From the NCBI GenBank assembly GCA_033765305.1, contig JANRID010000011.1, positions 1 to 24,000 on the forward strand: a DNA stretch of 24,000 bases, written 5' to 3'. The first letter of the stretch is position 1, and every line of letters starts with the position of its first letter. This document shows positions 1 through 17,457 of the stretch, in pieces. The notes beneath the pieces were generated by a model. That model saw nothing but the letters and a program-made list of their open reading frames with translations, did no database searches and was not told the origin of the DNA. The DNA comes from Bacteroidia bacterium. GTDB lineage: Bacteria > Bacteroidota > Bacteroidia > J057. The position numbers and the translations under genes were made by a program.

Positions 1-162
1 AAGAAATTCAGCACCAAGCGCCTCAAGGGCCTTATCGCCGAAAACGCCAAAGAGGATATGAAGACCCAGCGCGCCCTCTTCAACCTGGTGTGGAAGGACT
101 GGAAGGCCGACGACGAGCAGCTGGACGACGTGACGCTGCTCGGTATTAAGTTTCACGATTAG
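1..162 (+). CDS. 3' end of a PP2C/SpoIIE-family protein phosphatase (partial, runs off left edge)
   Basis: Frame 1 is open from base 1 to TAG at 160-162. The translation ...KEDMKTQRALFNLVWKDWKADDEQLDDVTLLGIKFHD ends in the D-D-x-T-L-L-hydrophobic strand typical of the C-terminus of SpoIIE/PP2C phosphatases. Confidence 0.45.
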   Translation, partial: KKFSTKRLKGLIAENAKEDMKTQRALFNLVWKDWKADDEQLDDVTLLGIKFHD

Positions 163-220
163 GCCTTTTTAGGGTGGGTCTTCTGGGCCCCGGTTGCGGC
201 CTTGGGCCCATCTTAGGGCC

Positions 221-2203
221 ATGAAACCGATTTATTGGGCGTTTACGCTGGTTCTTTCTGGTGGCCTGGTACCCCTGGCGGCGCAGCAACTGCCCCCCAG
301 CGTGCGGGCCATCCACAGCAACCTGGGCGAAGACAGTGCGGGGGTATACGTGCTGACCCCGGCCGGGAACAAGGCCTACGAGGTGAACCCCCCGGCCTTC
401 CCGACCCTGAGCCAAATGATAGGCACCCGCACGGGCTACAAAGACGGCATTGCGCTCGACTTCCAAGCCCCCGACTTCAACGGCCTGGTGTACTACGGCT
501 TCTTGCCCTACGGCGACGGCACCTACATCTACCCCGTGTACGTGCGGCAGGCGCCCGAGGTCATTGGTGGCAAGGTGAAGCTGCCCATCCGCAACCTCAG
601 GGGCCGCTACGACATGATTGGCTGGGAAGCGAAGGGCTGGGGCTACCTGGGCTACCGTGTGGTGAGCAGCAAAGGCGCCATCCTCTACGACGGCAAAATT
701 GCCTTTGGCTACGACGCCAAGGCCGATTCGTTTACTGCCCTAACTACGGTTGTAGAGGGGCCAAAATCCATTTATTTTTCCTCAGAAGAACAGTACGTAT
801 CACTGGCGTTAAATGAAAAACCACATGGTATTGTGATTATTGATTTAATGCCAGGTAAAAAGGCGAGTGAGGGTGGTATATATGATTTAAATCCTACATC
901 AATTAAGTCTTTAACCCTAGTTAAAGATACGGCTACGCTCAACGCCCTTGGAAATTTCAAGGATGAGCTTATTCCGAGCCGGGTTAAAGACAATGAGTCG
1001 CTATATCTTTTTGATTCGCCTTCAATTTCGCGCCCCATTATAATTCCTAGTCGCAGTAGTAGCCCAACAGAGAAGGATCGGTTCACCTTCGCCTATTGCT
1101 CCGACAGCCGCGACAACCAGGGCGGGGGCGAGCGAAACGTGTTTGGCACCAATTTCTACATGGTAAAGCGCATTGGGGCGCTGGCCACCAGCCGTGGCGC
1201 GGCCTTCGTGCAGTTCACCGGCGACCTCATCGATGGCTACCTCACCAGCGCCGACCAGCAGCGGCTGCAGTACGCCAACTTCAAGCGCGCCCTAGAGCCC
1301 TACTGGGGCAGCATCCCCTTCATTTGCGCCCCGGGCAACCACGAGGCACACAGCCGTCTGTTCTACGACACCCAGGGCCAGACCTACTACTCCATAGACC
1401 GTTACCCCTACGCCGACAGTAGCGCCGAGGCCCTGTTTGCCAGCGAATTTGCCAACCCCATCAGCAGTCTTAGGAGCGAAGATGGCGCGGCGTACGACCC
1501 CGACCCCACCGTGCAGAACTTCCCCCCCTACGGCGAGACGGTCTTTACCTACAGCTACGGCAACACGGCCATGGTGGTGCTCAACAGCAACTACTGGTAC
1601 ACCGTGCAGCAGCGCCACGTGCCCCACGTAAGCGGCAACATCCACGCCTACATCATGGACAACCAGCTGGCCTGGCTGGCCCACCAGCTCGATAGCCTGG
1701 AGCGCGACCCGGCCATTGCCCACGTGTTCGTCACCTGCCACACGCCCATCTTCCCCAACGGCGGCCACGTGCAAGACGACATGTGGTACCGTGGCGACAA
1801 CCGCCCCCGGCCCTACGTGGCCGGTAAACCCGTGGCCAAGGGCATCCTCGAGCGCCGCGACGAGATTCTAGACCTGCTCGTCAACAAAAGCACCAAAGTG
1901 CGCGCCACCCTTACGGGCGATGAGCACAACTACTGCCGCACCCAGATCACCGAGGCCATGCCCCGCTACCCCGAGGGGTGGACCGGCCCCCGCCTAGCGC
2001 TCAAGCGCACCATCTGGCAGATCAACAACGGCAGCGCCGGCGCCCCCTACTACGCCCAGGAGCAAACGCCCTGGAGCGCCTTTACCCAGGCCTTCACCAC
2101 CCAGGTGGCCCTGGTCTTTGTGCACGTAAACGGCGACAAGCTCGAGGTAGAAGTACAAAACCCCGACACCCTGGAGGTGATCGATAGGTTTACGCTACGC
2201 TAG
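221..2203 (+). CDS. secreted calcineurin-like metallophosphoesterase with a large N-terminal non-catalytic region
   Basis: The ORF in the track is 194-2203 (TTG start). ATG at 221 is more likely because it gives MKPIYWAFTLVLSGGLVPLAAQQ, a signal peptide. Phosphoesterase motifs are present: CSDSRD, GDLIDGY (GDxxD), APGNHE, VTCHTP and TGDEHNY. Codons about 190-297 lie in the low-GC island (see findings). Confidence 0.8.
   Translation: MKPIYWAFTLVLSGGLVPLAAQQLPPSVRAIHSNLGEDSAGVYVLTPAGNKAYEVNPPAFPTLSQMIGTRTGYKDGIALDFQAPDFNGLVYYGFLPYGDGTYIYPVYVRQAPEVIGGKVKLPIRNLRGRYDMIGWEAKGWGYLGYRVVSSKGAILYDGKIAFGYDAKADSFTALTTVVEGPKSIYFSSEEQYVSLALNEKPHGIVIIDLMPGKKASEGGIYDLNPTSIKSLTLVKDTATLNALGNFKDELIPSRVKDNESLYLFDSPSISRPIIIPSRSSSPTEKDRFTFAYCSDSRDNQGGGERNVFGTNFYMVKRIGALATSRGAAFVQFTGDLIDGYLTSADQQRLQYANFKRALEPYWGSIPFICAPGNHEAHSRLFYDTQGQTYYSIDRYPYADSSAEALFASEFANPISSLRSEDGAAYDPDPTVQNFPPYGETVFTYSYGNTAMVVLNSNYWYTVQQRHVPHVSGNIHAYIMDNQLAWLAHQLDSLERDPAIAHVFVTCHTPIFPNGGHVQDDMWYRGDNRPRPYVAGKPVAKGILERRDEILDLLVNKSTKVRATLTGDEHNYCRTQITEAMPRYPEGWTGPRLALKRTIWQINNGSAGAPYYAQEQTPWSAFTQAFTTQVALVFVHVNGDKLEVEVQNPDTLEVIDRFTLR
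760..1085 (+). other. low-GC in-frame island inside the metallophosphoesterase CDS
   Basis: Hand count: 781-960 has 67/180 G+C (37%) and 961-1080 has 55/120 (46%). The flanks 601-660 and 1081-1140 each have 39/60 (65%). The reading frame is uninterrupted and codons switch to A/T-ending forms (tta, aaa, gat, att, aat). Confidence 0.9.
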
Positions 2204-3087
2204 TCGGGCTTTGGGCCCAACCGGCGGCGCATGTAGCCGTCTACGGTCGTCCAGCGCATGTGGGGGTACTCGCGCTGGAACTTGAGGTTCAGCAGCCCGC
2301 CGCGCAGGGGCCGGGGGGCCACCTGGCTCAGGGCACTGGTGGGTATGCCCTCTAGCCACACTTTCTTCTCGGGGTAGAAGGCGGCCACTTTTTGGGCCAG
2401 GTGCACGCGGCTCACGTAGTCGGTGCTAGCCAGGTGCCACACGCCCTTTTGCTCGTCGTGCATGAGCCACTGCAGGCCGGTGGCTACGTCGGTGGCGTAC
2501 ACGGGCGTAGCGTACTGGTCGATGGGCAGGCGCAGTTGCACCAGCTGCTCGGTGGCAAACTGCTGGATGAGCCGCTCGATGAAGTTTTTGCCGCGGGTTT
2601 CTTCGCCGTACACGTTGGTAATGCGCACCACCAGGCTGTGGGGCACCTGGTCGAGCACCAGGCGCTCGGCGGCCAGTTTGTGGCGGCCGTACACCGAGAG
2701 GGGGTAGGAGAGGTCGTTTTCCTCGTAGGGGCCCATCTCGCCATTAAAGACGTAGTCTGAGCTGATGTAGGCGATCCGGGCATCGCAGGCTTTGGCCAAC
2801 TCGACGAGCTGCTGGGTGCTACCTACGGTCTGGCGGTACGATTCTTCGGGGTCTTTCTCGCACTGGTCTACGTGAGTCAGGGCCCCGCAGTGCACAATCC
2901 ACTCGGGGTCAAAGGCCCGCAGGTCATAGTTGTCGGGGTGGTCTGGCGTGAGGGGGTCGTAGTAGTACGTGCCATCCACCGGGTAGCTGCGGAAGGTGCC
3001 GACCACCACCCAGTCGGGTAGCTGGCGCCACTGGTGCAGGCAGTGGCTGCCCACCAGCCCCGAAGCCCCCACAATTGCCACACGCAT
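2200..3087 (-). CDS. RmlD-like NAD(P)-dependent sugar-nucleotide reductase (dTDP-4-dehydrorhamnose reductase family, SDR fold)
   Basis: 295-aa ORF. It has an N-terminal Rossmann motif (VAIVGASGLVGS), the SDR catalytic YGRHK (YxxxK) and overall RmlD substrate-binding-domain length and layout. Its stop shares the tetranucleotide CTAG with the convergent upstream gene. Confidence 0.7.
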   Translation of the reverse strand: MRVAIVGASGLVGSHCLHQWRQLPDWVVVGTFRSYPVDGTYYYDPLTPDHPDNYDLRAFDPEWIVHCGALTHVDQCEKDPEESYRQTVGSTQQLVELAKACDARIAYISSDYVFNGEMGPYEENDLSYPLSVYGRHKLAAERLVLDQVPHSLVVRITNVYGEETRGKNFIERLIQQFATEQLVQLRLPIDQYATPVYATDVATGLQWLMHDEQKGVWHLASTDYVSRVHLAQKVAAFYPEKKVWLEGIPTSALSQVAPRPLRGGLLNLKFQREYPHMRWTTVDGYMRRRLGPKPD

Positions 3088-3176
3088 TGCGCAAAACTAC
3101 GCCGCATTTACCAGTGTGTTAAACCTGTGGTCTAGGGAATTCTACGGGCCCAGTTGTAGTTATTCGTTTACTCAAC

Positions 3177-3184
3177 TAATTTTG
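3177..3184 (+). promoter_or_regulatory. candidate Bacteroidota -7 promoter box (TAATTTTG = TAnnTTTG) for the yceI-like gene
   Basis: Exact match to the TAnnTTTG consensus, 26 nt upstream of ATG 3210, in a 122-bp AT-richer spacer. A TTG at 3154-3156 sits about 20 nt upstream as a possible -33 element. Confidence 0.35.
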
Positions 3185-3209
3185 AACCAACCTAATCCAA
3201 CCCAAACCT

Positions 3210-3755
3210 ATGAGTACTGCCACGACCACCCTGTGGGCCATCGACCCCACCCACAGCAGCATCCAGTTTAAGGTTAAGCACCTGGTTATCAGCACCGTAA
3301 CGGGCGAGTTTACCGACTACAGCGCCACCGTACAGGCGCCGGCCGAGGGCTTCGAGGGGGCCAAGGTGAGTTTCGAGGCCCAGGTGGCCTCCATTTCTAC
3401 CGGTGTCGGCCAGCGCGACGACCACCTGCGTAGCGCCGACTTTTTCGACGCCCAGACCTACCCCACCCTGCGCTTCGAAAGCACCCGGTTTGCCGCCAAA
3501 GGCGCCGATGCTTTTGAGCTCGAAGGCCACCTCACCATCCGCGACACCACCCTGCCCGTGGTGCTGGCCGTAGAGTTTGGCGGCGTGGTGGTAGACCCCT
3601 ACGGCCAAACCAAAGCCGGCTTCGAGCTCACGGGCAAGATCAGCCGCAAGGCCTTTGGCCTGACCTGGAACGCCACCACCGAAGCCGGGGGTGTGGTCGT
3701 GGGCGACGAAATCAAGCTCGTGGCCAGCGTCCAGCTCGTCAAGCAAGCCGCCTAA
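3210..3755 (+). CDS. YceI-like polyisoprenoid-binding protein (no signal peptide)
   Basis: 181-aa ORF with the family signature: WAIDPTHSSIQFKVKHLVISTVTGEF, ISTGVGQRDDHLRSADFFDAQTYPTLRFES, LEGHLTIRDTT and KISRKAFGLTWN. Confidence 0.9.
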   Translation: MSTATTTLWAIDPTHSSIQFKVKHLVISTVTGEFTDYSATVQAPAEGFEGAKVSFEAQVASISTGVGQRDDHLRSADFFDAQTYPTLRFESTRFAAKGADAFELEGHLTIRDTTLPVVLAVEFGGVVVDPYGQTKAGFELTGKISRKAFGLTWNATTEAGGVVVGDEIKLVASVQLVKQAA

Positions 3756-3777
3756 CCCTAGCGGCCCTACCTACAGC

Positions 3778-3805
3778 ACACGCCCGGCGAACTCGTCGGG
3801 CGTGT
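3778..3805. terminator. stem-loop between convergent yceI-like and rmlC genes (possible bidirectional terminator)
   Basis: ACACGCCCG (3778-3786) pairs perfectly with CGGGCGTGT (3797-3805) around a 10-nt loop. It lies in the 54-bp gap between the two stop codons. There is no strong U-tract. Confidence 0.4.
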
Positions 3806-3809
3806 TGGC

Positions 3810-4343
3810 TTACCGGGGCTTTGCAAACGCCTCTAGCCCCGGCAGGGCCCGGTCGCGGTCGCTGACGGTGGGGTTGGGCAGGGGCCAGGCAAAGCCGAAG
3901 CTGTCGTAGCGGATGCCGCCGTCGTGGCTGGGGGCGTATTCCAGGGTCGTGTGGTAGACCAGCGTGCTGGGCTCGAAGGCCAAAAAGCCGTGGGCGCACC
4001 CGTGGGCGATGTACAGCCCCTGCGGCGTGGCGGGGCTCAGCTCCAGGCTGTAGTACTGCCCGAAGGTGGGCCCATGCCGGAGGTCGACCACCACGTCGAG
4101 CACCCGGCCGGCGGTGCAGTACACCAGCTTGCCGTGGTCGTAGGGCGGCAGTTGCAGGTGCATGCCGCGCAGCACCCCGGCGGCCGAGGTCGAGAAGTAG
4201 CTCTCGCGAAAGGACCAACTGAGGCCCGGCTGAGTGGCGAAGGTGGGCGCGTGTACCGTTTTTACAAAGGTGCCGCGGGCGTCGGCCTGGGGGGCGAAGT
4301 CGAGGCGGTAGCAGCCGGGTAGGGGCAGTGGGGTCAGTTCCAC
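3810..4343 (-). CDS. rmlC: dTDP-4-dehydrorhamnose 3,5-epimerase (cupin fold)
   Basis: 177-aa ORF with a GTG start. It carries the RmlC core motifs DARGTF, LRGMHLQ, HGKLVYCTAGRVLDVVVDLR, GCAHGF and the YHTT...Y..S.D region. Confidence 0.8.
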   Translation of the reverse strand: MELTPLPLPGCYRLDFAPQADARGTFVKTVHAPTFATQPGLSWSFRESYFSTSAAGVLRGMHLQLPPYDHGKLVYCTAGRVLDVVVDLRHGPTFGQYYSLELSPATPQGLYIAHGCAHGFLAFEPSTLVYHTTLEYAPSHDGGIRYDSFGFAWPLPNPTVSDRDRALPGLEAFAKPR

Positions 4344-4346
4344 AGA

Positions 4347-4703
4347 TCAGCAGTCGGCGGTAGCGTGGCGGGTTTCGATGAGCACCTGACGGAATACCTC
4401 CAGCCGGGCGTCGTCCAGTCGGGTAAACCGTATGCAGCCTTTGCCCAGGTTGCAGCCAACCAAAGACGGTTTCAAGCCCTCGGGGATGTGCCGTAAGTAG
4501 AGCGCCAGGTAGTGCTTCTGGGCATTGAATGCATAGACGTAATCGCCCGTTTCGTCGCTGTAGGTGGGCATTTTGTACTGCATACTTTCGCGCAGTTCGG
4601 GTGCCACGTCTTTAAGCAAAGCCCGCAGGCGCTGTAGGTCGTTTTTGCGCGCCGGTGGCAGGCTTTCCAGAAAGGCCTCAACGGTGGGTTCGGTGCTCTG
4701 CAT
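4347..4703 (-). CDS. DUF1801 (YdhG-like) domain protein
   Basis: 118-aa ORF. VEAFLESLPP...LQRLRALLKDVAPELRESMQYKMPTY...HYLALY...KGCIRF is the usual DUF1801 pattern. It sits 3 nt upstream of rmlC on the same strand. Confidence 0.65.
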   Translation of the reverse strand: MQSTEPTVEAFLESLPPARKNDLQRLRALLKDVAPELRESMQYKMPTYSDETGDYVYAFNAQKHYLALYLRHIPEGLKPSLVGCNLGKGCIRFTRLDDARLEVFRQVLIETRHATADC

Positions 4704-4885
4704 ACCACGAAACTAATACCCTGCGCAAGTTTTGAGCTAGACAGATTCTAAGTAGAAAGCGCCTGTCGGAAAGCCGTTTGCATTGCGTTTGGAGAACAAA
4801 GGTCGCACACTAACTTCGCCCCATTCCGGTGAAAAGCACCCCATTCACACCTACCTCCACGACCTCTGTTCTCCCGGCCGCTGCT

Positions 4886-6076
4886 ATGAACCGAACGTTT
4901 ACCCGCGGGGTACTGCTCAGCTTCCTGCTTCTCGGTACGCTACTGGCGCAGGGCCAGGACGTAGCCGCTGGTGAGAAACTCTTTAACGCCAACTGCAAAA
5001 GCTGCCACGCAGTAGATAAGAAGGTCATTGGCCCGGCCCTACAGGGCTGGAAAGACCGCGTGCCCGGCGACGGCTGGATCTACAAATGGGTGCGCAACTC
5101 GACCGAAGTCATCAAATCGGGCGACGCTTACGCCAACCAGATTTACAAAGAGTACAACGGGACGCTCATGACGGCCTTCCCGCAACTCTCTGATGGCGAC
5201 ATCGACAACATCATGGCGTGGGTAGATAACTACACGCCACCTACCCCCCCGCCAGGCCCAGCAACTGCTGCAACTCAACCGCAAGGCAGCATACCTACGG
5301 GCCCGCTCTACACGGGTCTGGTGGTGCTCATCGGGGTACTGGCGCTCATGTCATTTGCGCTCATCTTCCTCATCGTGGTAGTCATTCACGCCGTACGGGC
5401 CAAAGAGAGCGGCACCTCGTTCTCAATGCCCCAGGTGGCGGGCAGCTTCCGCAAGGCGGCCACGAGCAAGTTTACCCTCACGACCGTAACCCTGCTGTTG
5501 GTGGCCGGGGGCCTGAACTACACGGTTAAGACCGCCCGCGGGGTTGGTCTGCACCAAGGCTATACACCTGCTCAGCCAGTAGCCTTCAGCCACAAAATCC
5601 ACGCAGGCCAATACGGTATTAGTTGCAACTACTGCCACACAGGCGTAGAGAAAAGCAAAAGCGCCACCATCCCCGGGGCGAACATTTGCATGAACTGCCA
5701 CAACTACATTGAAGAAGGCCCCAACTACGGTAAGGTCGAAATCGGCAAAGTGCGTGCGGCCTATGAGGCAAATCGGCGCATTGAGTGGGTACGCATCCAC
5801 AACCTGCCCGACCTGGTGTACTTCAACCACGCCCAGCACGTAAAAGTGGGCGGCGTTGAGTGCCAGGAGTGCCACGGCCCGGTCGAGACCATGGAAGTCG
5901 TGTACCAGTTCTCTGACCTGAGCATGGGCTGGTGCATCACCTGCCACCGCGAGAAGCAGGTGGATGTGACCAAGAACGACTACTACCTCAAGGTGCACAA
6001 CGAGTACGTGGGCAAGGAAACAGCCGTCACGGTATCTGACCTCGGTGGCCTGGAATGCGCCAAGTGCCATTACTAA
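4886..6076 (+). CDS. actA: alternative complex III subunit ActA, multiheme cytochrome c with an extra N-terminal monoheme domain
   Basis: The ORF in the track starts at GTG 4829. ATG 4886 gives the signal peptide MNRTFTRGVLLSFLLLGTLLAQG. There are six CxxCH motifs: CKSCH (TGC at 4994), CNYCH, CMNCH, CQECH, CITCH and CAKCH. The gene precedes actB. Confidence 0.85.
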   Translation: MNRTFTRGVLLSFLLLGTLLAQGQDVAAGEKLFNANCKSCHAVDKKVIGPALQGWKDRVPGDGWIYKWVRNSTEVIKSGDAYANQIYKEYNGTLMTAFPQLSDGDIDNIMAWVDNYTPPTPPPGPATAATQPQGSIPTGPLYTGLVVLIGVLALMSFALIFLIVVVIHAVRAKESGTSFSMPQVAGSFRKAATSKFTLTTVTLLLVAGGLNYTVKTARGVGLHQGYTPAQPVAFSHKIHAGQYGISCNYCHTGVEKSKSATIPGANICMNCHNYIEEGPNYGKVEIGKVRAAYEANRRIEWVRIHNLPDLVYFNHAQHVKVGGVECQECHGPVETMEVVYQFSDLSMGWCITCHREKQVDVTKNDYYLKVHNEYVGKETAVTVSDLGGLECAKCHY

Positions 6077-6131
6077 TCTTCTAACGCAGACTTCACCCCT
6101 CCTCCCTCCCTGTCCGCCCGTCATTAAGGCT

Positions 6132-9100
6132 ATGCGCGAGAACCGATACTGGCAGACCCCCGAGCAGTTGCACGCTGCCCCCGCGGGCACCGACCCCAAG
6201 CAGGAGCGCGACATCCCGGTGGATGAACTCCTCGAAAACGCGCTGCCCTCGGGCCGCCGCGATTTCTTGAAGATGATGGGCTTTGGCCTCTCGGCTGCGG
6301 TACTGGCCGCCTGCCAGAAAGCCCCGGTGAAGTATGCGCTGCCGTACGTAAAGAACCCCACCGACCTGGTTCCGGGCATCCCCAACTTCTACGCGACCGG
6401 GTTTTACGATGGCCAGGAGTTTAGCTCCATCCTGGTTAAAACCCGCGAAGGGCGCCCCATTAAGGTTGAAGGCAACAAACTAAGCCCCCTGCACAAGGGT
6501 GGGGTAGGGGCCCGTGCCCACGCCTCGATCCTCTCGCTCTACGACAACTCCGATGCTCGGCTGCGCCAACCGGCCGAAGCCAACGGCGACCAGTTCGTGC
6601 CCGTTGCGTGGGACAAGCTGGACGGTACCGTGCCCGGCAAACTCGCCGAAGCCGCCAATGCGGGTAAGCCCATCTACCTGATTACCGGCTCGGTCATCAG
6701 CCCCATGCGTATGGCCGCCATTGCGGCCTTCAAGGCCAAGTACCCCACCGCGCAGCACGTGGTGTACGATGCCATCAACTACGATGCCATTGCACAGGCC
6801 CACGAGACCCTGCTGGGCAAACGTGCCATGCCAGCCTACCGCTTCGACAAAGCGCAGGTTGTGGCCAGCTTCAACTGCGACTTCCTGGGTACCTGGCTCT
6901 CGCCCACCGAGTTTACCCGGCAATGGACGAGCACCCGCAAGGTGACAGACACCAACCCCACCGTGAGCCGCCTGTACCAGTTTGAGGCCCAAATGAGCCT
7001 CACGGGTGCGAACGCCGACCACCGCATCCCCATGAAGCCCAGCCAGGAAGCGGCTGCACTGGTGGCGCTCTACAATAGTATTGCCGCTCGGGCGCGCCAA
7101 GACATCTACAACGCCCCTAAGGTCGAGCTGGCCGGTAACTTCATTGAGAAGGCCTCGCTCGACCTGTGGGAAGCACGTGGCAAAGCCCTGGTGGTTTCGG
7201 GCACCAACGATGCCAACATCCAGCAAATCGTAGTGGCCATCAACTGGATGCTTGAGGCCTACGGTGCAACGCTGGACCTCGAGCGGCCCTGCCTGCTCCG
7301 CTCGCGCGGCGATAGCACGCTGGAAGCTGCACTGGCCGGTTTTGCCGGTGCCGGTGCGGTGCTCATTCATGGCGGTACCAACCCAGCCTACAGCCACCCC
7401 ACCGCCGAAGCCTTTACCAGCGCACTGGCCAAGGTGCCCTTGCGTATCAGCTTCAGCAGCTACCTCGACGATACGGCCGCACTCTGCACCCACGTAGCGC
7501 CCGACCACCATTACCTTGAAAGTTGGGGTGATGCCCAGCCCTACGCCGGGCAGTACTTCCTGCAGCAGCCGACCATCCAGCCGCTGTTCAAGACCCGGCA
7601 GTTTGAAGAAACGCTCCTGCTCTGGGCCGGGGTCAAGACGACAGCGTTCGATTTCCTGCGTGCGCAGTTTGCGCAAGCCCACAAGGCGTTGGCGGACAAA
7701 AAAGACGCTCCTTCGGTCGACCAGCTCTGGATGCAGAGCCTACACGACGGCTTCTACGTGCACCCCAGCGATGGCAAATCGGCCGATGCGCCCAAGCTGG
7801 CGGCTTCGGTTGCGCCTGCCGTTGCGGCGGCTACCCAGGCCATCAAACCAGCTGAACTTGAGGTTGTGCTCTACCAGAAAGTTGCCATCGGCGACGGTAC
7901 CCTGACCAACAACCCCTGGCTGCACGAACTGCCCGACCCCATCAGTAAAGCGGTGTGGGACAACTACGTGGCCGTAAACCCCGTCGATGCCCAAGCCAAA
8001 GGCATCAAAACCGGCACCCACGTCAAGGTTACGCTGGGCAGTTACAGCGTTGAGCTACCCGCCTACGTGCAGCCCGGCCAAGCCCGCGGCACCGTTGCCA
8101 TCGCCCTCGGCTATGGCCGGACCAAAGGCGGCAAAGTCGTCGAGTACAGCGGCAAAGGCCTGGGCAAGAACGCCTACCCGTTTGTCACCTTCGCCGGGGG
8201 GCTGCCACGGTACAGCGCCACGGGCGCTACCCTGGAGCTCACCGGTGGTTTTACCGAGTTGGCCCTGAGCCAGCGGCACCCCACCTCAATGGGCCGCGAC
8301 ATCATCCGCGAGACCACCTTGTCGGAGTACCGCAAGAACCCCAAGGCCGCCAATGAGCACCAGGTACACATCGTGCAGGTCTTCCCCCAGCACCCCAAAA
8401 ACGGGCACTGGTGGGCGATGGCCATCGATCTGAACGCGTGCACGGGTTGCGGCGCGTGTGTGGTGAGCTGTGTGGCCGAAAACAACATCGCCGTTGTGGG
8501 CCGCAACGAAGTGAAACGCAGCCGCGAGATGCACTGGCTGCGCATTGACCGCTACTACAGCACAAACCCCGAAGCGCTGGAGAAGCAGGACCTTAAGGCC
8601 ATGGAACTGCCCGAGGAGTACCCTCAGGTCATCTTCCAGCCCATGCTCTGCCAGCAGTGCGACAATGCCCCTTGCGAAACTGTGTGCCCTGTGTTGGCCA
8701 CCACCCACAGCAGCGAAGGCTTGAACCAAATGACGTACAACCGGTGCATCGGCACCCGGTACTGCGCCAACAACTGCCCCTACAAGGTGCGCCGCTTCAA
8801 CTGGTTCAACTACTGGAACGACAAGACGCTCTACGGCGATCTGTACTCGCACAGCGAAATGGGCCGCCTGGTGCTGAATCCGGATGTGACGGTGCGTTTC
8901 CGCGGGGTGATGGAAAAATGCTCCTTCTGCGTGCAGCGCCTCCAGGATGCCAAGCTGCGGGCCAAGGTGAATGCCAACAGCACCTTCGCCAAGCCCGAAG
9001 ACGGCGAAGTGAAGACCGCCTGCCAGCAGTCCTGCCCCACAGGCGCGATCGTATTCGGCGACTTCAACGATCCGGAGAGCGAAGTTTCCAAGCTCATCCG

Positions 9101-9257
9101 CCACGAGCGCAGCTACAAGGCACTCGAAGACATCAAGGTGCTGCCGAACGTGCAGTATATGACGCTGGTCCGCAACCGCACCGAGGCGGAAGCGGCTTCC
9201 CGCGCCCGGACCCAGAAGGGGGCAGAAACGCACGCTGCCGCCGACCACCACGGATAA
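6132..9257 (+). CDS. actB: alternative complex III subunit ActB (molybdopterin-oxidoreductase-like domain fused to a 4Fe-4S ferredoxin domain)
   Basis: The ORF in the track starts at 6045 and overlaps actA. ATG 6132 (MRENRYWQTPEQL) is the family-typical start. A twin-arginine motif (SGRRDFLKMMGFGLSAAVLAAC) is present. Cys clusters are CTGCGACVVSC, CQQCDNAPCETVCP, CIGTRYCANNCP and CSFC...CQQSCP. Confidence 0.9.
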   Translation: MRENRYWQTPEQLHAAPAGTDPKQERDIPVDELLENALPSGRRDFLKMMGFGLSAAVLAACQKAPVKYALPYVKNPTDLVPGIPNFYATGFYDGQEFSSILVKTREGRPIKVEGNKLSPLHKGGVGARAHASILSLYDNSDARLRQPAEANGDQFVPVAWDKLDGTVPGKLAEAANAGKPIYLITGSVISPMRMAAIAAFKAKYPTAQHVVYDAINYDAIAQAHETLLGKRAMPAYRFDKAQVVASFNCDFLGTWLSPTEFTRQWTSTRKVTDTNPTVSRLYQFEAQMSLTGANADHRIPMKPSQEAAALVALYNSIAARARQDIYNAPKVELAGNFIEKASLDLWEARGKALVVSGTNDANIQQIVVAINWMLEAYGATLDLERPCLLRSRGDSTLEAALAGFAGAGAVLIHGGTNPAYSHPTAEAFTSALAKVPLRISFSSYLDDTAALCTHVAPDHHYLESWGDAQPYAGQYFLQQPTIQPLFKTRQFEETLLLWAGVKTTAFDFLRAQFAQAHKALADKKDAPSVDQLWMQSLHDGFYVHPSDGKSADAPKLAASVAPAVAAATQAIKPAELEVVLYQKVAIGDGTLTNNPWLHELPDPISKAVWDNYVAVNPVDAQAKGIKTGTHVKVTLGSYSVELPAYVQPGQARGTVAIALGYGRTKGGKVVEYSGKGLGKNAYPFVTFAGGLPRYSATGATLELTGGFTELALSQRHPTSMGRDIIRETTLSEYRKNPKAANEHQVHIVQVFPQHPKNGHWWAMAIDLNACTGCGACVVSCVAENNIAVVGRNEVKRSREMHWLRIDRYYSTNPEALEKQDLKAMELPEEYPQVIFQPMLCQQCDNAPCETVCPVLATTHSSEGLNQMTYNRCIGTRYCANNCPYKVRRFNWFNYWNDKTLYGDLYSHSEMGRLVLNPDVTVRFRGVMEKCSFCVQRLQDAKLRAKVNANSTFAKPEDGEVKTACQQSCPTGAIVFGDFNDPESEVSKLIRHERSYKALEDIKVLPNVQYMTLVRNRTEAEAASRARTQKGAETHAAADHHG

Positions 9258-9264
9258 TGCATCA

Positions 9265-9284
9265 GGCGGGGGCATGCCCCCGCC
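9265..9284. other. perfect GC-rich palindrome / stem-loop in the actB-actC spacer
   Basis: GGCGGGGG CATG CCCCCGCC forms an 8-bp G/C stem with a 4-nt loop, and is fully self-complementary over 20 nt. It starts 8 nt after the actB TAA (9255-9257). Confidence 0.6.
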
Positions 9285-9329
9285 GCTTTCATACCTCTGA
9301 GCGAATATTCCCGGAACAACGAACGGAAC

Positions 9330-10730
<1,401 letters not shown>

Positions 10731-10765
10731 CATCCTCCAGACCCCTCTGATAATCTGCGGAGACA

Positions 10766-11293
10766 ATGAAAGCAAGAAACTTCGTCGTCGGAAAATTCTG
10801 GAACCCCGACCATGTGCTGGAGGCGCTCGACAAGCTGCAGCACGACCGGGTCCTGGTGTATGATGTATTCTCGCCCTTTCCCATCCACGGGATCGAGCCA
10901 TATCTCAATATCAAGCGCACACGGCTGACGGTGGCCTCCTTCATCTACGGCTGCATCGGCGTCACGCTGGCAGTCACGATGATGTCCCTGATCTACGGGG
11001 TGGTATGGCCGGTGAACATCGGCGGCAAGCCCTATGTGCCGTGGGTGGACTTTACGCCGGTGGCGTTCGAGACGACGGTGCTCTTTGCCGCGCACGGCAT
11101 GGTGATCACCTTCTTCATCGTGGGCAACTTCTGGCCGGGCAAAAAGGCCCGCCTGTTCGACGACCGCCAGACGGACGACGTGATCGTGGTGGCGATCGAC
11201 CGCCAGAAAATCGAAAATATGGACGCGGTCCGCAAGACGCTGACGGATGCGGGCGCATTTGAAGTCACCGAACAAATCTCTGAAGGGCGATGA
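10766..11293 (+). CDS. actD: alternative complex III subunit ActD (DUF3341 membrane protein)
   Basis: 175-aa ORF with two central TM helices. The N-terminus (VVGKFWNPDHVLEALDKLQHDRVLVYDVFSPFPIHGIE) is typical of DUF3341. Its stop overlaps the actE start (ATGA at 11290-11293). Confidence 0.85.
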   Translation: MKARNFVVGKFWNPDHVLEALDKLQHDRVLVYDVFSPFPIHGIEPYLNIKRTRLTVASFIYGCIGVTLAVTMMSLIYGVVWPVNIGGKPYVPWVDFTPVAFETTVLFAAHGMVITFFIVGNFWPGKKARLFDDRQTDDVIVVAIDRQKIENMDAVRKTLTDAGAFEVTEQISEGR

Positions 11294-12000
11294 ACCAGCA
11301 AGCACGCATCTTCGCAGTCCTGACGGCAGGCGTTCTGCTCCTGGCGCTCTCCGGCTGCTATACCGACAAATCCCGGCGCAACCTGGAGTATGCGCCCAAC
11401 ATGTACAACTCCCTGCCGCTGGAGCCTTACTCCCAGACGGTTTTCTGGGAGACCAACATCGGCGGCAACTACGAGGCTGCTCGCAAGGACGGCAAATCGC
11501 CCTTTGCCAACGGCCTCAATGCCCAGCGCGCACCCGAAGGCACGGTGCCCCGCACGGAATCGTGGATTACGGCTGCCGACACCCTCGTGCCCTACACGCC
11601 GTATCCGCATCCCGACTCGCCGGAAGGCTATGAGGCTGCCAACGGCTACCTGAGCCCGCTCAATCTGCCCGACCGCAACGGAAAAGGCATTCAGTGCACG
11701 GAGGAAAGCTTCAAGCGCGGCAAGGAAGTGTACGAGATCTACTGCCAGGTCTGCCACGGTGCCAAAGGCGACGGCCAGGGCACGCTGGCGCAGAAAGGGG
11801 TGCTGGGCGGCGTGCCTGCCTACAACTCCGGACGCCTTGCGACCATGACCGCCGGCCAGATGTACCATTCCATCACCTACGGGCGCAACAACATGGGCTC
11901 GTACGCAGCCCAGCTCACCCCGCGCCAGCGCTGGGAGGTGATCTGCTACATCCAGCAGTTCCAGCCGGCCCCCGGCGCTGCGCAACCCGCGACGAATTGA
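11290..12000 (+). CDS. actE: alternative complex III subunit ActE (monoheme cytochrome c lipoprotein)
   Basis: 236-aa ORF with a lipoprotein signal (LLLALSGC) and a single CQVCH heme motif. The downstream ...MTAGQMYHSITYGRNNMGSY segment supplies a likely Met ligand. Confidence 0.85.
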   Translation: MNQQARIFAVLTAGVLLLALSGCYTDKSRRNLEYAPNMYNSLPLEPYSQTVFWETNIGGNYEAARKDGKSPFANGLNAQRAPEGTVPRTESWITAADTLVPYTPYPHPDSPEGYEAANGYLSPLNLPDRNGKGIQCTEESFKRGKEVYEIYCQVCHGAKGDGQGTLAQKGVLGGVPAYNSGRLATMTAGQMYHSITYGRNNMGSYAAQLTPRQRWEVICYIQQFQPAPGAAQPATN

Positions 12001-12029
12001 TTCCCTGAACCCCCATAAACCGTAATACT

Positions 12030-13376
12030 TTGAAAGCGGTACACTATACAAAGGAACAGCTGACCGAACGCTTCGAGTTCACGCCCAAGCTGCGGAACTT
12101 CATCTTCGGTCTGATTGGGGTGGGCCTGGTGCTGGTGCTGCTAGGCGCATTCCTGGGCGGCGGCGGCGAAGAGCACGCCACGGAAGGCGGACACCATGCG
12201 GCAGCTGCCGCAGGCGAGGTGATCGCCGTAGCCGATACGGACGGCGGCCATCATGCCGACCATCCGCCGGTGCTCGTGCGCCGGATTCTGGCCAACCTGC
12301 TCATCAGCAGCCTGTATTTCATGACCATTGCGATGGGCTGCATGTTCTTCCTGACCGTGCACCGCATCGGCAATGCCGGCTGGCATACGGCCATCAAGCG
12401 CGTACCGGAGGCGATCGTGACCTGGCTGCCTGTAGGCGCCGCCGGCTTCGCCATCCTGTGCATTTTCCTGAATCAGCTGTATGAATGGGCGATTCTGCCC
12501 GCAGGGGCCGATGCCATCATCGACTCCAAGCGCGCATATCTCAATCAGCCGTTTTTCATCGCCCGCACGTTTGTGTTCTTCCTGATCTGGGGGGCTGCTG
12601 CCTGGTATTACCGCCGGCTCTCGCACAAACAGGATGCAGCTGCCAGCTCCGATGAAGGGGTGGCCTGGTTCAAGCGCAGCGAAGCCCTTTCCGCTGGGTT
12701 TGTGGTATTCTTTGCCCTTTCCTACAGCTTCTTCGCGGTGGATTGGATCAAGTCGCTGGAGCCGCACTGGTTCAGCACGATCTTCGGGGTGCAGGTGTTT
12801 GCCGGCTCGATGGTGATTGCCAACGTGACGATGTACCTGCTGCTGCTCTACCTCCAGAACCAGGGCTACATGAAGTATGTGAACCCGTCGCACTACCACG
12901 ACCTGGGCAAATACACCTTCGGCTTCTCGATCTTCTGGGCCTATACTTGGCTGGCGCAGTACCTGCTGATCTGGTATGCGAACATTCCGGAGGAAGGCAT
13001 CTACTATGTCAAGCGCTACCGCGTGGAAGATCCTGAGTATCTGGGATATGCGTTCTTCTTCTACGCCAACATCATCATCAACTTCATCACGCCGTTCTTC
13101 GCGCTGATGACCCGCGATGCCAAGCGCCATGCCACGACCTTCGTGCCGGTGGGCATCCTGCTGATCTACGGCCACTGGCAGGATCTGTTCCAGATGGTGA
13201 TGCCCGGCGCAGTCGGGAAGAACCAGGGAATCGGCTTCCTCGAGATCGGTTTCTTCCTGGCGTTTGCAGGCCTGTTCATGCTGGTGGTGTTCCGCTCGCT
13301 GACCCGCGCCAATCTGGCGCCCGTCAACCACCCCTATCTGGAGGAAAGCCTGCACCATACGACCGGGGCCGTTTGA
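12030..13376 (+). CDS. actF: alternative complex III subunit ActF (NrfD-like membrane subunit)
   Basis: 448-aa polytopic ORF in the actF position. Only a TTG start (12030) is available upstream of the first TM helix, so the start is uncertain. Confidence 0.8.
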   Translation: MKAVHYTKEQLTERFEFTPKLRNFIFGLIGVGLVLVLLGAFLGGGGEEHATEGGHHAAAAAGEVIAVADTDGGHHADHPPVLVRRILANLLISSLYFMTIAMGCMFFLTVHRIGNAGWHTAIKRVPEAIVTWLPVGAAGFAILCIFLNQLYEWAILPAGADAIIDSKRAYLNQPFFIARTFVFFLIWGAAAWYYRRLSHKQDAAASSDEGVAWFKRSEALSAGFVVFFALSYSFFAVDWIKSLEPHWFSTIFGVQVFAGSMVIANVTMYLLLLYLQNQGYMKYVNPSHYHDLGKYTFGFSIFWAYTWLAQYLLIWYANIPEEGIYYVKRYRVEDPEYLGYAFFFYANIIINFITPFFALMTRDAKRHATTFVPVGILLIYGHWQDLFQMVMPGAVGKNQGIGFLEIGFFLAFAGLFMLVVFRSLTRANLAPVNHPYLEESLHHTTGAV

Positions 13377-13456
13377 CGGATTAAGAAAATCGTATATTTG
13401 GATCAACAATCCTTCCCCTCTCCCAGTTATAGACTTACCATACCGAGATACGCTGC

Positions 13457-14521
13457 ATGGATGCACAGTCCCTTATCAGTCTCGCGCAATGGCTGCTGGT
13501 GCTCATTTTGGGCATGGTCTGCGCGAACCTTTACCTGGTATTCCGCCTGAAGGATCTCGATCCCTTCGCCCGCTGGAACGCAAACCTGATCAATGCCTGG
13601 CTGCTGCTGCTCTTTATGATCGGCGGATTCATCGCAGCTGCGGTGTCGACTGGCGTGTGGAAGGAGCATTTTACGCTCGTCTTCGATTCCGCATCGGAGC
13701 ATGGGGAATGGATCGATGCGATGTTCTGGCGCACCATGGCCGTATCGATCTTCGTGACGGTCATTACGAATGTGCTGCTCTTCTATTACGCATGGCGCTA
13801 CCGCGCCCGCGAAGGCCAGAAGGCGCTCTTTTATCCGCATAACAACAAGCTGGAGCTGATCTGGACCATCATTCCGGCCATCGTGCTCACGGCCCTGATT
13901 CTGGACGGCGCGTTCAAGTGGCTCAAAATCACAGGTCCTGCTCCGGACGACGCGCTGCTGGTGGAAGTCAACGGCAAGCAGTTTGCCTGGACGGCCCGCT
14001 ATCCCGGCGCAGATCTGGAATTTGGCGAGACGAATGTCCGCCTGATCGACGAAGGCAAGGGCAACACGCTCGGATTCAACCTCGAAGACAAGCGAGGCCA
14101 TGACGATCTGGTTACCAATGAAATGGTGATTCCGGTCAACACGGATATTGAGATGAAGATCCGCTCCCGCGATGTGCTTCACAGCGCTACGCTGGCCCAT
14201 TTCCGGGTCAAGATGGATGCGGTGCCCGGCATGATGACCCGCTTCCACTTCAAGCCGACCAAAACGACGGCTGAAATGCGGGAGATCAAAGGCAATCCGG
14301 ACTTCGAATACGAAATGTCCTGCCAGCAGATCTGCGGCGGCGGCCACTGGAACATGCGTCTGGTGGTGAAAGTGGTGACGATGGAGGAATACAAAGCCTG
14401 GGCTGCCCAGCAGCAGACCTTTATCGCCTCCTACCGTCAGCTGAATCCGGAAGCCGGCGGAGCACAGGCCGATGCTTCCGAAGCAGAAGCCACAGCGCCT
14501 CAGATGGCAGTTTCCCGCTGA
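13457..14521 (+). CDS. coxB: cytochrome c oxidase subunit II (CuA subunit, no fused cytochrome c domain)
   Basis: 354-aa ORF with N-terminal TM helices and a cupredoxin domain. The CuA ligands are DVLHS ... SCQQICGGGHWNM (H, C, C, H, M). Confidence 0.9.
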   Translation: MDAQSLISLAQWLLVLILGMVCANLYLVFRLKDLDPFARWNANLINAWLLLLFMIGGFIAAAVSTGVWKEHFTLVFDSASEHGEWIDAMFWRTMAVSIFVTVITNVLLFYYAWRYRAREGQKALFYPHNNKLELIWTIIPAIVLTALILDGAFKWLKITGPAPDDALLVEVNGKQFAWTARYPGADLEFGETNVRLIDEGKGNTLGFNLEDKRGHDDLVTNEMVIPVNTDIEMKIRSRDVLHSATLAHFRVKMDAVPGMMTRFHFKPTKTTAEMREIKGNPDFEYEMSCQQICGGGHWNMRLVVKVVTMEEYKAWAAQQQTFIASYRQLNPEAGGAQADASEAEATAPQMAVSR

Positions 14522-14569
14522 TTGAATGGTACCCGAATCGTAATACTCAGAGCATAAGCGTTCGTATAT

Positions 14570-16459
14570 ATGGCTGAAGTCACTTCGCATGCAGCCGTGA
14601 CAGTTGGGGGGCACGCACACGAGCACCACGATCACGAGCACCACGGAAATTTCTGGACGAACTACGTGTTCAGCACCGACCATAAGGTCATCGCCAAGCA
14701 GTTCATGATCACCGGGATCATCATGGCGATCATCGGGATCGGGATGTCCACGCTGTTCCGTCTGCAACTGGCCTTTCCGGACACCAACTTCCCGGTCCTG
14801 GAGTTTTTCCTCGGGAAATGGGCCCCGGATGGCAAACTCGATCCGAATTTCTACCTGGCCCTGGTAACGATGCACGGGACTTTCATGGTCTTTTTCGTGC
14901 TCACGGCCGGCCTGAGCGGCACCTTCAGCAACTTCCTGATTCCGCTGCAGATCGGCGCGCGCGACATGGCGTCGGGCTTCATCAATATGCTTTCGTACTG
15001 GTTCTTCTTCGCATCGTCGGTAATCATGCTGATTTCCCTCTTTGTGGAGACGGGCCCTGCTGCTGCCGGCTGGACGATTTATCCTCCGCTCAGCGCACTG
15101 CCTGAAGCGATTCCGGGCTCCGGTGTCGGGATGACGCTCTGGCTGGTGGCCATGGTGCTCTTCATCGCCTCGTCGCTGATGGGCGGCATCAACTACATCG
15201 CCACGGTGCTGAACCTCCGCACGGAAGGCATGTCGTTCGACCGCCTGCCGCTGACCATCTGGGCCTTCTTTGTAACGGCGATCCTCGGGGTGCTTTCCTT
15301 CCCCGTGCTGCTGGCCGCAGCGCTGCTGCTGCTGTTCGACCGCTCATTCGGCACCAGCTTCTATCTCTCCGACATCTTCATCGGCGGTGCCGCCATGCAC
15401 CACCAGGGGGGCAGCCCGATCCTGTTCCAGCACCTGTTCTGGTTCCTCGGCCACCCGGAAGTATATATCGTGCTGCTGCCCGCACTGGGCATCACCTCCG
15501 AGATTGTATCGGTGCACAGCCGCAAGCCGATCTTCGGCTACAAGGCTATGATCGGTTCGATTCTGGGCATCGCTTTCCTTTCGTTCATCGTGTGGGCGCA
15601 CCACATGTTCGTGACCGGGATGAACCCCTTCCTCGGAACGGTGTTCATGCTCTTCACGCTGGTGATCGCCGTGCCTTCGGCCATCAAGGCGTTCAACTAC
15701 ATCGCCACGCTTTGGAAGGGCAATATCCGGTTTACGACGCCGATGCTGTTTGCAATCGGTCTCGTATCCTTCTTCATCACCGGCGGCATCACCGGCATCT
15801 TCTTGGGCAATGCAGCGCTGGACATTCCGCTGCACGATACCTACTTTGTGACGGCGCACTTCCACCTCGTGATGGGTTCGGCTTCGGCCTTCGGCTTCTT
15901 CGCCGGGATCTACCAGTGGTTCCCCAAGATGTTCGGCCGCCAGCTGAACGCACGCCTGGGCTATCTGCACTTCTGGTTTACGTTTGTATCGCTGTATCTC
16001 GTGTTCTTCCCGATGCACTTTATGGGCATGGGCGGTGTGGCACGCCACTATTACAGCCAGACGGCGTTTGACTTCATGAACGTGTTCGGCGACCTGCAGG
16101 TGTTCATCACCATTGCGGCGATCATCGGCTTCTTCGGGCAGTTCTTCTTCCTGTGGAACTTTGTGACCAGCATTTTCTGGGGCAAGCAGTCTTCGCTCAA
16201 CCCCTGGGAATCCAACACGCTGGAGTGGACTACGCCGCTGCATCCGGGCCACGGCAACTGGCCGGGCGCGATTCCTGCAGTGCACCGCTGGCCGTATGAC
16301 TATTCCCGCCCCGGTGTGAAGAAGGATTACCTGCCGCAGCACATTCCGGATGAGGAAGTAGAATACGAAGAAGGATTCAAGCCGGAACTCGATCCGCATC
16401 ATGCCCCTGCGCCCAAGCGCAAGCAGGAGACGGGCGAGAAGACGGAAACAGCTGAATAA
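14570..16459 (+). CDS. coxA: cytochrome c oxidase subunit I (heme-copper oxidase catalytic subunit)
   Basis: 629-aa ORF with the classic motifs HGTFMVFF, GAAMHHQGGSPILFQHLFWFLGHPEVYI, WAHHMF and HDTYFVTAHFH. It has a His-rich N-terminus and an acidic C-terminal tail. Confidence 0.95.
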   Translation: MAEVTSHAAVTVGGHAHEHHDHEHHGNFWTNYVFSTDHKVIAKQFMITGIIMAIIGIGMSTLFRLQLAFPDTNFPVLEFFLGKWAPDGKLDPNFYLALVTMHGTFMVFFVLTAGLSGTFSNFLIPLQIGARDMASGFINMLSYWFFFASSVIMLISLFVETGPAAAGWTIYPPLSALPEAIPGSGVGMTLWLVAMVLFIASSLMGGINYIATVLNLRTEGMSFDRLPLTIWAFFVTAILGVLSFPVLLAAALLLLFDRSFGTSFYLSDIFIGGAAMHHQGGSPILFQHLFWFLGHPEVYIVLLPALGITSEIVSVHSRKPIFGYKAMIGSILGIAFLSFIVWAHHMFVTGMNPFLGTVFMLFTLVIAVPSAIKAFNYIATLWKGNIRFTTPMLFAIGLVSFFITGGITGIFLGNAALDIPLHDTYFVTAHFHLVMGSASAFGFFAGIYQWFPKMFGRQLNARLGYLHFWFTFVSLYLVFFPMHFMGMGGVARHYYSQTAFDFMNVFGDLQVFITIAAIIGFFGQFFFLWNFVTSIFWGKQSSLNPWESNTLEWTTPLHPGHGNWPGAIPAVHRWPYDYSRPGVKKDYLPQHIPDEEVEYEEGFKPELDPHHAPAPKRKQETGEKTETAE

Positions 16460-16467
16460 TTCCGCTA

Positions 16468-17457
16468 TTGGAATCTCCTATCCCGACGGCAGCGCCCGCA
16501 GTGAAACGCTATCGATGGATGGCAGGCATCACGGTGGGCGCTGTCATCTTTTTGATCCTGGTAGGTGCGCTGGTGCGCATGACGGGATCGGGCATGGGCT
16601 GCCCTGACTGGCCGAAATGCTTCGGGCAGTGGGTGCCGCCGACGGATATTTCACAGCTGCCGGCGGATTATAAGATCCGGTTTCAGGTGGCGGGGAAGGA
16701 AATCGCCGATTTCGACCCGTACAAGACCTGGATCGAGTACATCAACCGGCTGATCGGGGTGCTGATCGGGCTCTTTGCGCTGATTACGGCGGCGCTGTCG
16801 CTGCCGTTGCGGCGGCTAGATCCCTGGATCACGCGGTGGAGTGCAGCGGGGCTGGTGCTGGTGATCCTGCAAGGGGGGCTGGGTGCGTATGTTGTGCGCA
16901 CGAACCTGAAAACCGGCATCATTACGCTGCACATGCTGATGGCGCTGCTGGTGCTGGCGGCCTTTATGGCGGCGTGGATGCGGACCCTGCGCACACAGGC
17001 GAATGCAGAGCCCGGGCTGTTCCGGCTGTCGCTGGCGGCGCTGCTGCTGACGCTGGTGCAGATTCTGCTGGGCACCCAGGTGCGCGAGCAGATCGACGAG
17101 CTGGCGATTGCGCTGGGATCGGACCGGCGTGCGGAGTGGATTGCGGGGCTGGATGCGCTGTACGACGTGCACAAGGTATTTTACTATGTGCTTGCGGCAG
17201 CGGCGGCGGCGGTGTGGTGGCAGGGAAGACGTTCGGGCACGCGCGCATTGCGGCTGCTGAGCTGGAGCTTGCCTGCGGTGGTGGCAGCGGAGGTGCTGCT
17301 GGGGCTGGGGATGCATCACCTGGCTGTGCCGGCGGTCTTTCAGCCGTTGCATTTGTTGGCTGCAACGCTGTTATTTGCGGGGTTGTTTCTGATGACGGGA
17401 TTGGCCTGGCCGCGGCGGCCGGGTGCAGAGCAAGCACATGATGAACATGCAAGATAA
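16468..17457 (+). CDS. ctaA: heme A synthase (COX15/CtaA family)
   Basis: 329-aa polytopic ORF carrying VRMTGSGMGCPDWPKCFG and conserved His-containing helices (HMLMALL, HKVFY, HLLAATLL). The start is ambiguous: TTG 16468, GTG 16501 or ATG 16519. Confidence 0.85.
   Translation: MESPIPTAAPAVKRYRWMAGITVGAVIFLILVGALVRMTGSGMGCPDWPKCFGQWVPPTDISQLPADYKIRFQVAGKEIADFDPYKTWIEYINRLIGVLIGLFALITAALSLPLRRLDPWITRWSAAGLVLVILQGGLGAYVVRTNLKTGIITLHMLMALLVLAAFMAAWMRTLRTQANAEPGLFRLSLAALLLTLVQILLGTQVREQIDELAIALGSDRRAEWIAGLDALYDVHKVFYYVLAAAAAAVWWQGRRSGTRALRLLSWSLPAVVAAEVLLGLGMHHLAVPAVFQPLHLLAATLLFAGLFLMTGLAWPRRPGAEQAHDEHAR

Follow-up and report, generated by a model that had tools for sequence, protein, structure and literature searches.

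We analyzed the first 24,000 nucleotides (nt) of contig JANRID010000011.1 from a Bacteroidia bacterium (the window, below), which derives from a metagenome-assembled genome (MAG), and found that its gene for a metallophosphoesterase of the PhoD/purple-acid-phosphatase type carries an in-frame island of foreign-looking, low-GC sequence. The island spans 318 nt of the + strand (764-1081, limits set by comparison with the nearest relative) and has a GC content of just 0.396, in a gene whose flanks on either side lie at ~62%. We favor, with a probability of about 0.62, its origin by a horizontal replacement below the level of the gene that is both real and lineage-specific and that struck a dispensable domain. 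Under this proposal, ~320-340 nt of coding DNA from an organism of roughly 35-42% GC would have replaced, in its own frame, the stretch between the motif T-V-V-E-G-P and the first catalytic strand of the enzyme.

The low-GC island and its counterparts in close relatives

The island stands apart from its surroundings in composition and codon usage. Its GC content at the first, second and third codon positions is 0.45, 0.40 and 0.34, and the third-position value (GC3) of the flanks within the same gene is 0.81 on the left and 0.87 on the right. Outside the island, 318-nt windows across the 24-kb stretch have a mean GC content of 0.615 (standard deviation (SD) 0.041, minimum 0.516); when all 318-nt windows are considered, the island is the sole outlier (0.393, 5.4 SD). 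A previous sequence-only reading of this DNA had reported the dip from four counts (39/60 in 601-660, 39/60 in 1081-1140, 67/180 in 781-960 and 55/120 in 961-1080), all of which we reproduced exactly. The peptide that it quoted corresponds to residues 179-297 of the 660-residue open reading frame (ORF), which indeed stays open through the island.

In a collection of 5.8 billion protein clusters, only two proteins are more than 50% identical to the phosphatase: P0001 (82%), encoded by a Logan contig (L001), and P0002 (74% over 57% of the query), encoded by a second contig (L002). The synteny between L001 and the window extends over 9 kb, with a nucleotide identity of 95.2% between window positions 1-763 and L001 1837-2599 and of 92.4% between window positions 1082-9091 and L001 2885-10916. 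Between these two blocks, the island and the corresponding 285-nt slot of L001 (2600-2884), which is native in composition (GC 0.64, GC3 0.68), have zero similarity at either the nucleotide or the protein level. The similarity stops and restarts on codon boundaries at both ends of the island, and the divergence of the flanks is even (3-10% per 200 nt), with no rise near it. Synonymous codon changes predominate in the flanks (19 synonymous and 8 nonsynonymous on the left; 57 and 11 on the right), which points to purifying selection on the gene in both lineages. Two marks of a mosaic gene are present, namely a sharp break in composition and codon usage within a single ORF and the absence of the segment from a close relative whose flanks are conserved.

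The slot of the second relative, L002, comprises only 44 residues. The slot peptides of the window, L001 and L002 are mutually unrelated in any reading frame, and none of them matches a profile of the domain that occupies this position elsewhere in the family; by these comparisons the slot is free of constraint in this clade. Where the two relatives can be compared at the junction, the residues right after E-G-P are alike in L001 (L-L-Q) and L002 (L-R-Q) and the Pro preceding T-V-V-E-G-P is common to both, with the window differing at both places. This agreement gives the L001 state an ancestral look and makes the window state derived, so that on the sequence evidence the island is a derived, lineage-specific replacement. 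The sequence-only reading had noted that the same low-GC segment in close orthologues would instead point to an ancient, conserved feature; the two orthologues carry, respectively, an unrelated segment of native GC and the much shorter peptide.

The internal structure of the island resembles that of a gene. Its + frame is purine-rich at the first, G-poor at the second and T-rich at the third codon position, as are genes of genomes with ~38-40% GC. We scored it with a low-GC codon model, trained on long ORFs (250 kb in total) of those family loci that have 34-44% GC. The + frame of the island obtained +16.4 bits, which is within 1.3 SD of genuine in-frame 318-nt chunks (25.6 +/- 7.1 bits); out-of-frame chunks obtained -75 +/- 27 bits and composition-matched random stop-free sequences -6.2 +/- 7.2 bits, with only 0.02% of the latter attaining the score of the island. 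Further, the island favors the low-GC over the native codon model by a log2 likelihood ratio of +73.7 bits, compared to -85 and -221 bits for the flanks and -45 bits for the L001 slot. Because both the codon-model scores and the likelihood ratio favor a low-GC coding frame, the island looks like foreign coding DNA in its own frame rather than random AT-rich filler. The earlier proposal of codon usage typical of a low-GC organism between native flanks is therefore upheld by GC3, by the codon models and by the L001 flanks alike.

The strand opposite the island had also been described as unexpectedly free of stop codons. The corresponding antisense ORF (Table 1) exists, but it is within chance expectation, an equal degree of openness being reached in 7% of cases when synonymous codons are permuted and in 2% when the order of codons is shuffled, and it is not coding-like (codon-model score -6.9 bits). 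A protein search returned zero homologues of its peptide, and there were zero Pfam and zero PHROG matches. On the strength of the permutation statistics, the codon structure and the lack of homologues, we rejected an antisense gene and regard this ORF as a side effect of the sense frame.

The phosphatase and the fold of its variable slot

The protein displays an N-terminal beta domain (residues ~25-180), the variable slot (181-287) and a catalytic domain (288-660) that matches PF00149 with 25.2 bits (gathering cut-off 21.5; E = 2.5e-5). A hydrophobic N-terminal leader or signal peptide suggests that it is exported. We retrieved over 1000 homologues, mostly from Bacteroidota-type MAGs, with ~47% identity and lengths of 624-635 aa. 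The metal-ligand motifs of the window protein are intact (SDSR at 294, GDLIDGY at 334, GNHE at 372, CHTP at 506 and GDEHNY at 566). In an alignment of 121 sequences, D295, D335, N373, H374, H507 and H569 are invariant, as are F288, Y292 and R297, with Asp295 being the first metal ligand, and the window protein keeps every invariant column. An AlphaFold (AF2) model of the 660-aa protein built on this alignment reached a mean predicted local distance difference test score (pLDDT) of 85 and a predicted template modeling score (pTM) of 0.87. Foldseek matched it to PhoD (2yeq) and the purple acid phosphatases 3zk4, 1ute and 1kbp with probability 1.00 and E-values of 1e-12 to 1e-8; at the sequence level, no relative was found in the PDB. 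The catalytic part of the gene is thus intact.

Homologues across the family feature a 77-83-aa FN3-like domain between T-I-x-E-G-P and F-T-F-A-Y-x-S-D-S-R, with PF16656 matches in several of them. Since this domain occupies exactly the slot in question, the sequence-only reading was right to place the island just ahead of the catalytic D-S-R motif, where the family has a beta-sandwich domain. In the window protein, this PF16656-like pre-catalytic domain is not recognizable. The island has no significant match to a 79-aa profile of the family domain made from 118 homologues (E = 0.13-0.6), its similarity to the consensus of that domain is no better than that of shuffled sequences, and a Pfam search gave no match within it even at E<=10. 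The AF2 model shows two short strands (residues 177-185 and 191-197) and then an unstructured region, with pLDDT values of 27-47 over residues 204-281. By comparison, the AF2 model of the L001 protein renders the slot as ~6 beta strands with pLDDT values of 45-65, consistent with a degenerate FN3-like sandwich. Hence, of the domain-sized cassette from a low-GC donor that had been proposed, the in-frame foreign replacement of the domain slot stands, and the beta-sandwich nature or family-domain homology of the incoming piece does not (profile E>0.1, no Pfam match, low pLDDT). Likewise, the alignment to orthologues and the structure prediction that had been suggested as checks place the island in the position of the pre-catalytic domain, with no fold predicted for it.

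The low-GC patch also has a practical effect, in that it probably misled at least one gene call. An NCBI contig of 80,895 nt carries the call of a 347-aa protein (P0122), which is the representative of a 90% cluster and which, judged by its length, runs from Met314 of the phosphatase to the stop codon (1160-2203). A version starting at Met314 would leave out Asp295, which belongs to the first metal-binding motif. The likely reason for the shortened call is that the patch scores as non-coding, and, with the shortened protein as cluster representative, a search of the clustered protein database does not see the island.

Table 1. Positions in the window of the phosphatase gene, the island, its junctions and the overlapping antisense frame.
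Feature	Positions	Strand	Description
Metallophosphoesterase gene, PhoD/purple-acid-phosphatase type, 660 aa	221..2203	+	ATG 221, stop 2203; Pfam PF00149
Left junction zone	742..763	+	encodes L-T-T-V-V-E-G-P (family motif T-x-x-E-G-P); 6 substitutions relative to L001
Low-GC tract core	764..1081	+	106 codons in place of the 95 of the sister lineage
Antisense ORF, 104 codons	772..1086	-	shares wobble (third codon) positions with the + frame
Right junction	1082..1111	+	native sequence restarts at the first codon of FTFAYCSDSR, catalytic strand 1

Origin of the island

The two ends of the island differ in character. On the left, mismatches to L001 cluster at 742, 743, 745, 748, 751 and 754, such that 6 of the 22 nt of the junction zone are changed compared to 31 of 741 in the flank (~1 expected; P = 2e-4), and the codons GAG GGG CCA that follow at 755-763 are the same as the native ones. 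On the right, the return to native sequence at 1082 is abrupt. The patchiness of the substitutions at 742-754 hints that the exchange was initiated inside the homologous motif; were this the case, we infer that the donor had a related gene and that the heteroduplex was repaired patchwise. The mechanism we favor on this account would be homeologous or homology-facilitated illegitimate recombination. We found only short imperfect chance repeats in the region, none of them at the edges of the island, and neither terminal repeats nor a target duplication there. An Rfam scan of the region gave no match, and a search of the AT-rich patch for an internal promoter or terminator, the Bacteroidota TAnnTTTG motif included, found none.

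Such a replacement could be tolerated if, as the relatives suggest, the FN3-like domain had already become degenerate (L001) or been largely deleted (L002) in the high-GC clade, and the slot therefore accepted arbitrary sequence. Selection would then ask only for an open frame so that the downstream catalytic domain gets made. Most likely, the patch acts as a poorly structured, flexible linker that joins the N-terminal beta domain to the catalytic one, and not as a new functional module.

Several results weigh against this proposal. The low-GC donor posited by the sequence-only reading did not turn up in any collection searched. The island peptide has no word-sharing relative among 5.8e9 cluster representatives, and a full HMMER search against 1.84e9 representatives returned a single, repeat-inflated match. 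Searches of IMG/VR viral contigs and JGI metagenome contigs with back-translated patterns did not find the island, and a tblastn comparison of it to 80 family loci (28-57% GC) taken from the species representatives of GTDB gave nothing. With no homologue of the island at hand, no tree is possible, and neither a donor lineage nor phylogenetic incongruence could be demonstrated for it. The support for the junctions comes at the level of two MAG assemblies: the exact 660-aa protein is also found in GCA_964440845.1, whose contig CAYTTT010000008.1 (L003) equals window positions 1-8101, with the same island sequence included, bar one base. These two assemblies, both MAGs, may share reads, as the accession style resembles that of third-party co-assemblies, and they are therefore not independent proof. 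Finally, haplotype switches on the contig at 8.1 and 8.8 kb show that either the assembly or the population is mosaic. Positions 8102-8800 of the window are ~100% identical to L001 and differ by 1-9% from L003, and after ~8810 the window is only ~75% identical to either, with the gene order continuing. This switch (8102-8812) lies inside an actB-like ORF (6045-9257) and could be due to a chimeric assembly path or to recombination between strains or species that live together. The break at 9 kb, previously taken as another mosaic signature of the contig, is thus a real point of divergence from L001 and L003; it looks like a strain-haplotype switch and not like a compositional mosaic.

These observations bear most directly on whether the island is an artefact, that is, 318 nt from another low-GC organism of the community joined to this gene by the assembler or by binning. 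The MAG source, the switching from L003-like to L001-like sequence on the same contig, which makes path switching possible, and the inference that the second island-bearing assembly may use the same reads all speak for it. Yet, it would take two junctions that each return to the exact homologous codon, with no shared k-mers at either of them across a 22-point GC gap (40% vs 62%), and an insert that happens to be a stop-free multiple of three in its own coding frame, with a coding likeness that only 0.02% of random stop-free sequences attain. The two assemblies also give an identical sequence, and we consider an artefact to be quite improbable. A native origin, in which local constraint or relaxed selection lowered the GC content with no transfer, would fit the absence of constraint on the slot evident from the three unrelated peptides in the clade and the somewhat reduced GC3 of the L001 slot (0.68 vs 0.81-0.87). 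It is effectively refuted by the L001 comparison, because flanks that diverge by only 5-8% leave too little time to lose all similarity and to bring GC3 from ~0.7-0.85 down to 0.34; nor does the amino-acid composition account for the latter. The donor DNA could alternatively have come from the genome itself, if a low-GC region such as a prophage, a polysaccharide locus or a large adhesin gene had been the source in a gene conversion or illegitimate recombination event. The sole database match of the island, a 2618-aa adhesin-like protein of SdrD-B-type repeats, is of a kind common in Bacteroidota-type genomes. However, this match is inflated by the repeats, the island scores just 9.2 bits against their profile with no SdrD_B or CarboxypepD_reg match at E<=10, and neither the 24-kb window nor 22 kb of L003 holds a second copy of the island, which leaves an intragenomic source very unlikely.

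The remaining alternatives accept a transfer from outside and differ in what was transferred. In a true homologous domain swap, the island would be the highly divergent FN3-like domain of a low-GC orthologue, with the recombination anchored in the flanking motifs. The 742-754 cluster, which keeps L-T-T-V-V-E-G-P with other codons as if the import began in a homologous motif, agrees with this, as do the coincidence of the replacement limits with the domain boundaries, the insert being in its own reading frame, the two AF2 strands, and a weak likeness by eye of the ends of the island to the family consensus (VSLALNE vs ISFxTN; LYLFDSP vs YxFxTAP). Against it, neither the 118-homologue profile nor the consensus comparison detects the domain, the 80 family loci yielded nothing although many of them are of 28-40% GC, no similar slot exists among the more than 1000 family members retrieved, and the codons at 755-763 are native. 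We regard the swap as unlikely, if less so than the artefact. Another reading makes the slot a hot spot for cassette-like replacement, in which unrelated modules succeed each other between the two anchor motifs, some of them from distant low-GC organisms absent from databases. By analogy with the center of flagellin, pressure from recognition of the exposed enzyme may drive such turnover, with the island being a recently captured ORFan module; given the evidence from three clade members discussed below, this is a long shot. On balance, the horizontal replacement of a dispensable domain by a stretch of foreign coding DNA remains our preferred explanation.

We also considered and set aside several specific identities for the island. 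The single HMMER match, P0131 (E = 3e-5), aligns with the island in a constant register across 7 or more repeats, and a profile of its 19 repeats scores the island above the best of 2000 shuffles (5.7 bits). One P0131 repeat matches PF17210 at 1.7e-19, and the island itself has no match to PF17210, PF13620 or PF17802 at E<=10. As the E-value sums near-identical repeats and finds no support from Pfam, an SdrD-B or prealbumin-like (Cna-B type) identity is a lead only, not evidence. An intein was rejected in that the island begins with K instead of Cys/Ser/Thr and ends with KDR followed by F instead of His-Asn followed by Cys/Ser/Thr, and it has no Pfam match at E<=10, a Hint domain included; known mini-inteins are longer than 106 aa. 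A miniature inverted-repeat transposable element (MITE) or palindromic-element insertion was rejected given that there are no edge repeats or target duplication and no other copy in IMG/VR, JGI, the window or L003. An invertible or shufflon cassette was likewise discarded: the codon-aligned antisense frame contains stops, its longest open run being 27 codons, and the antisense frame that is open lies one base out of step, such that the frame downstream would be lost upon inversion. The variable region of a diversity-generating retroelement (DGR) was rejected as there is no second copy or template repeat in the 24-kb window or 22 kb of L003. Contamination of the kind detectable by blastn against plasmids, phages (PhiX and lambda included) and E. 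coli genomes is excluded, as these searches returned nothing for the island.

Genomic setting and comparison with known systems

The phosphatase gene is followed at 4829-18340 by an alternative-complex-III-like operon (multihaem cytochrome c, molybdopterin/Fe-S subunit, NrfD-like, ActD-like and cytochrome c) and then by COX2, COX1, CtaA and a UbiA-type haem O synthase. This core respiratory neighborhood places it in a housekeeping chromosomal region and not in a mobile island. Just 5' of the cytochrome c ORF that starts at 4829, the intergenic positions 4401-4800 (GC 0.53) differ from L001 by 15-25% per 200 nt, in contrast to the surrounding genes, which have diverged by only 3-10%. In L003, a nucleotidyltransferase/HepT-like toxin-antitoxin pair (2737-3367) is situated between two Fe-S/CCG-domain genes ~7 kb upstream of the phosphatase. 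The neighborhood of the L002 phosphatase is not syntenic with the window, and features phage-type holin and amidase genes along with two PIN-domain genes (766-1694, 5565-5966, 9880-10215). In a scan of genome contigs, the closest relative of the phosphatase from a GTDB species representative was 48% identical, and the high-GC clade formed by the window, L001 and L002 is a lineage without a representative genome among the GTDB species representatives scanned.

The enzyme is closest in architecture to the PhoD and purple acid phosphatases that combine PF16656 with PF00149 (2yeq, 3zk4, 1kbp). It shares with them the catalytic fold and the metal-ligand motifs, and its homologues have the same sandwich before the first catalytic strand; the window protein differs in having no recognizable sandwich and an extra N-terminal beta domain of ~155 aa. 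Among small elements that enter genes, the Rickettsia palindromic elements are mobile repeats inserted in frame in genes. As in those cases, a functional gene has kept a short foreign segment in frame, and its product gains a surface peptide. Unlike them, the island has no terminal inverted repeats, target duplication or other copies that we could find, and it constitutes a replacement and not a simple insertion. The D2/D3 region of flagellin offers a parallel of another kind, with a hypervariable center between the conserved termini of an exposed protein. There, as here, conserved flanks under purifying selection surround a center that differs wholly between relatives (106, 95 and 44 aa in our case) and in composition. 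The present gene differs in that it encodes an enzyme and not a known antigen or receptor, and in that its clade has three known members, which show no sign of diversifying selection or of a pool of alternative cassettes.

The nearest precedent is fragmentary transfer within genes. Chan, Beiko, Darling and Ragan (2009) report recombination break points within genes in 19.6% of 1,462 orthologous gene sets (PMC2817436), and they find that transfer does not generally use the regions coding for domains as its modules (PMC2639706). Our case resembles this phenomenon in combining a foreign piece of a gene, break points inside an ORF and native flanks, and departs from it in that the piece is non-homologous to the one replaced, is unameliorated (22 GC points lower) and has limits that coincide with a domain slot. 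Within-gene transfer is common and well documented, and the case is a clean but ordinary instance of it; the patch gives no sign of a new function and opens no new question. What sets it apart is that the exchanged piece coincides with a domain slot and is non-homologous to the sequence it replaced and compositionally fresh. It would thus illustrate horizontal transfer below the level of the gene, whereby the domain slot of a vertically inherited, functional enzyme gene is overwritten by foreign coding DNA with its frame kept.

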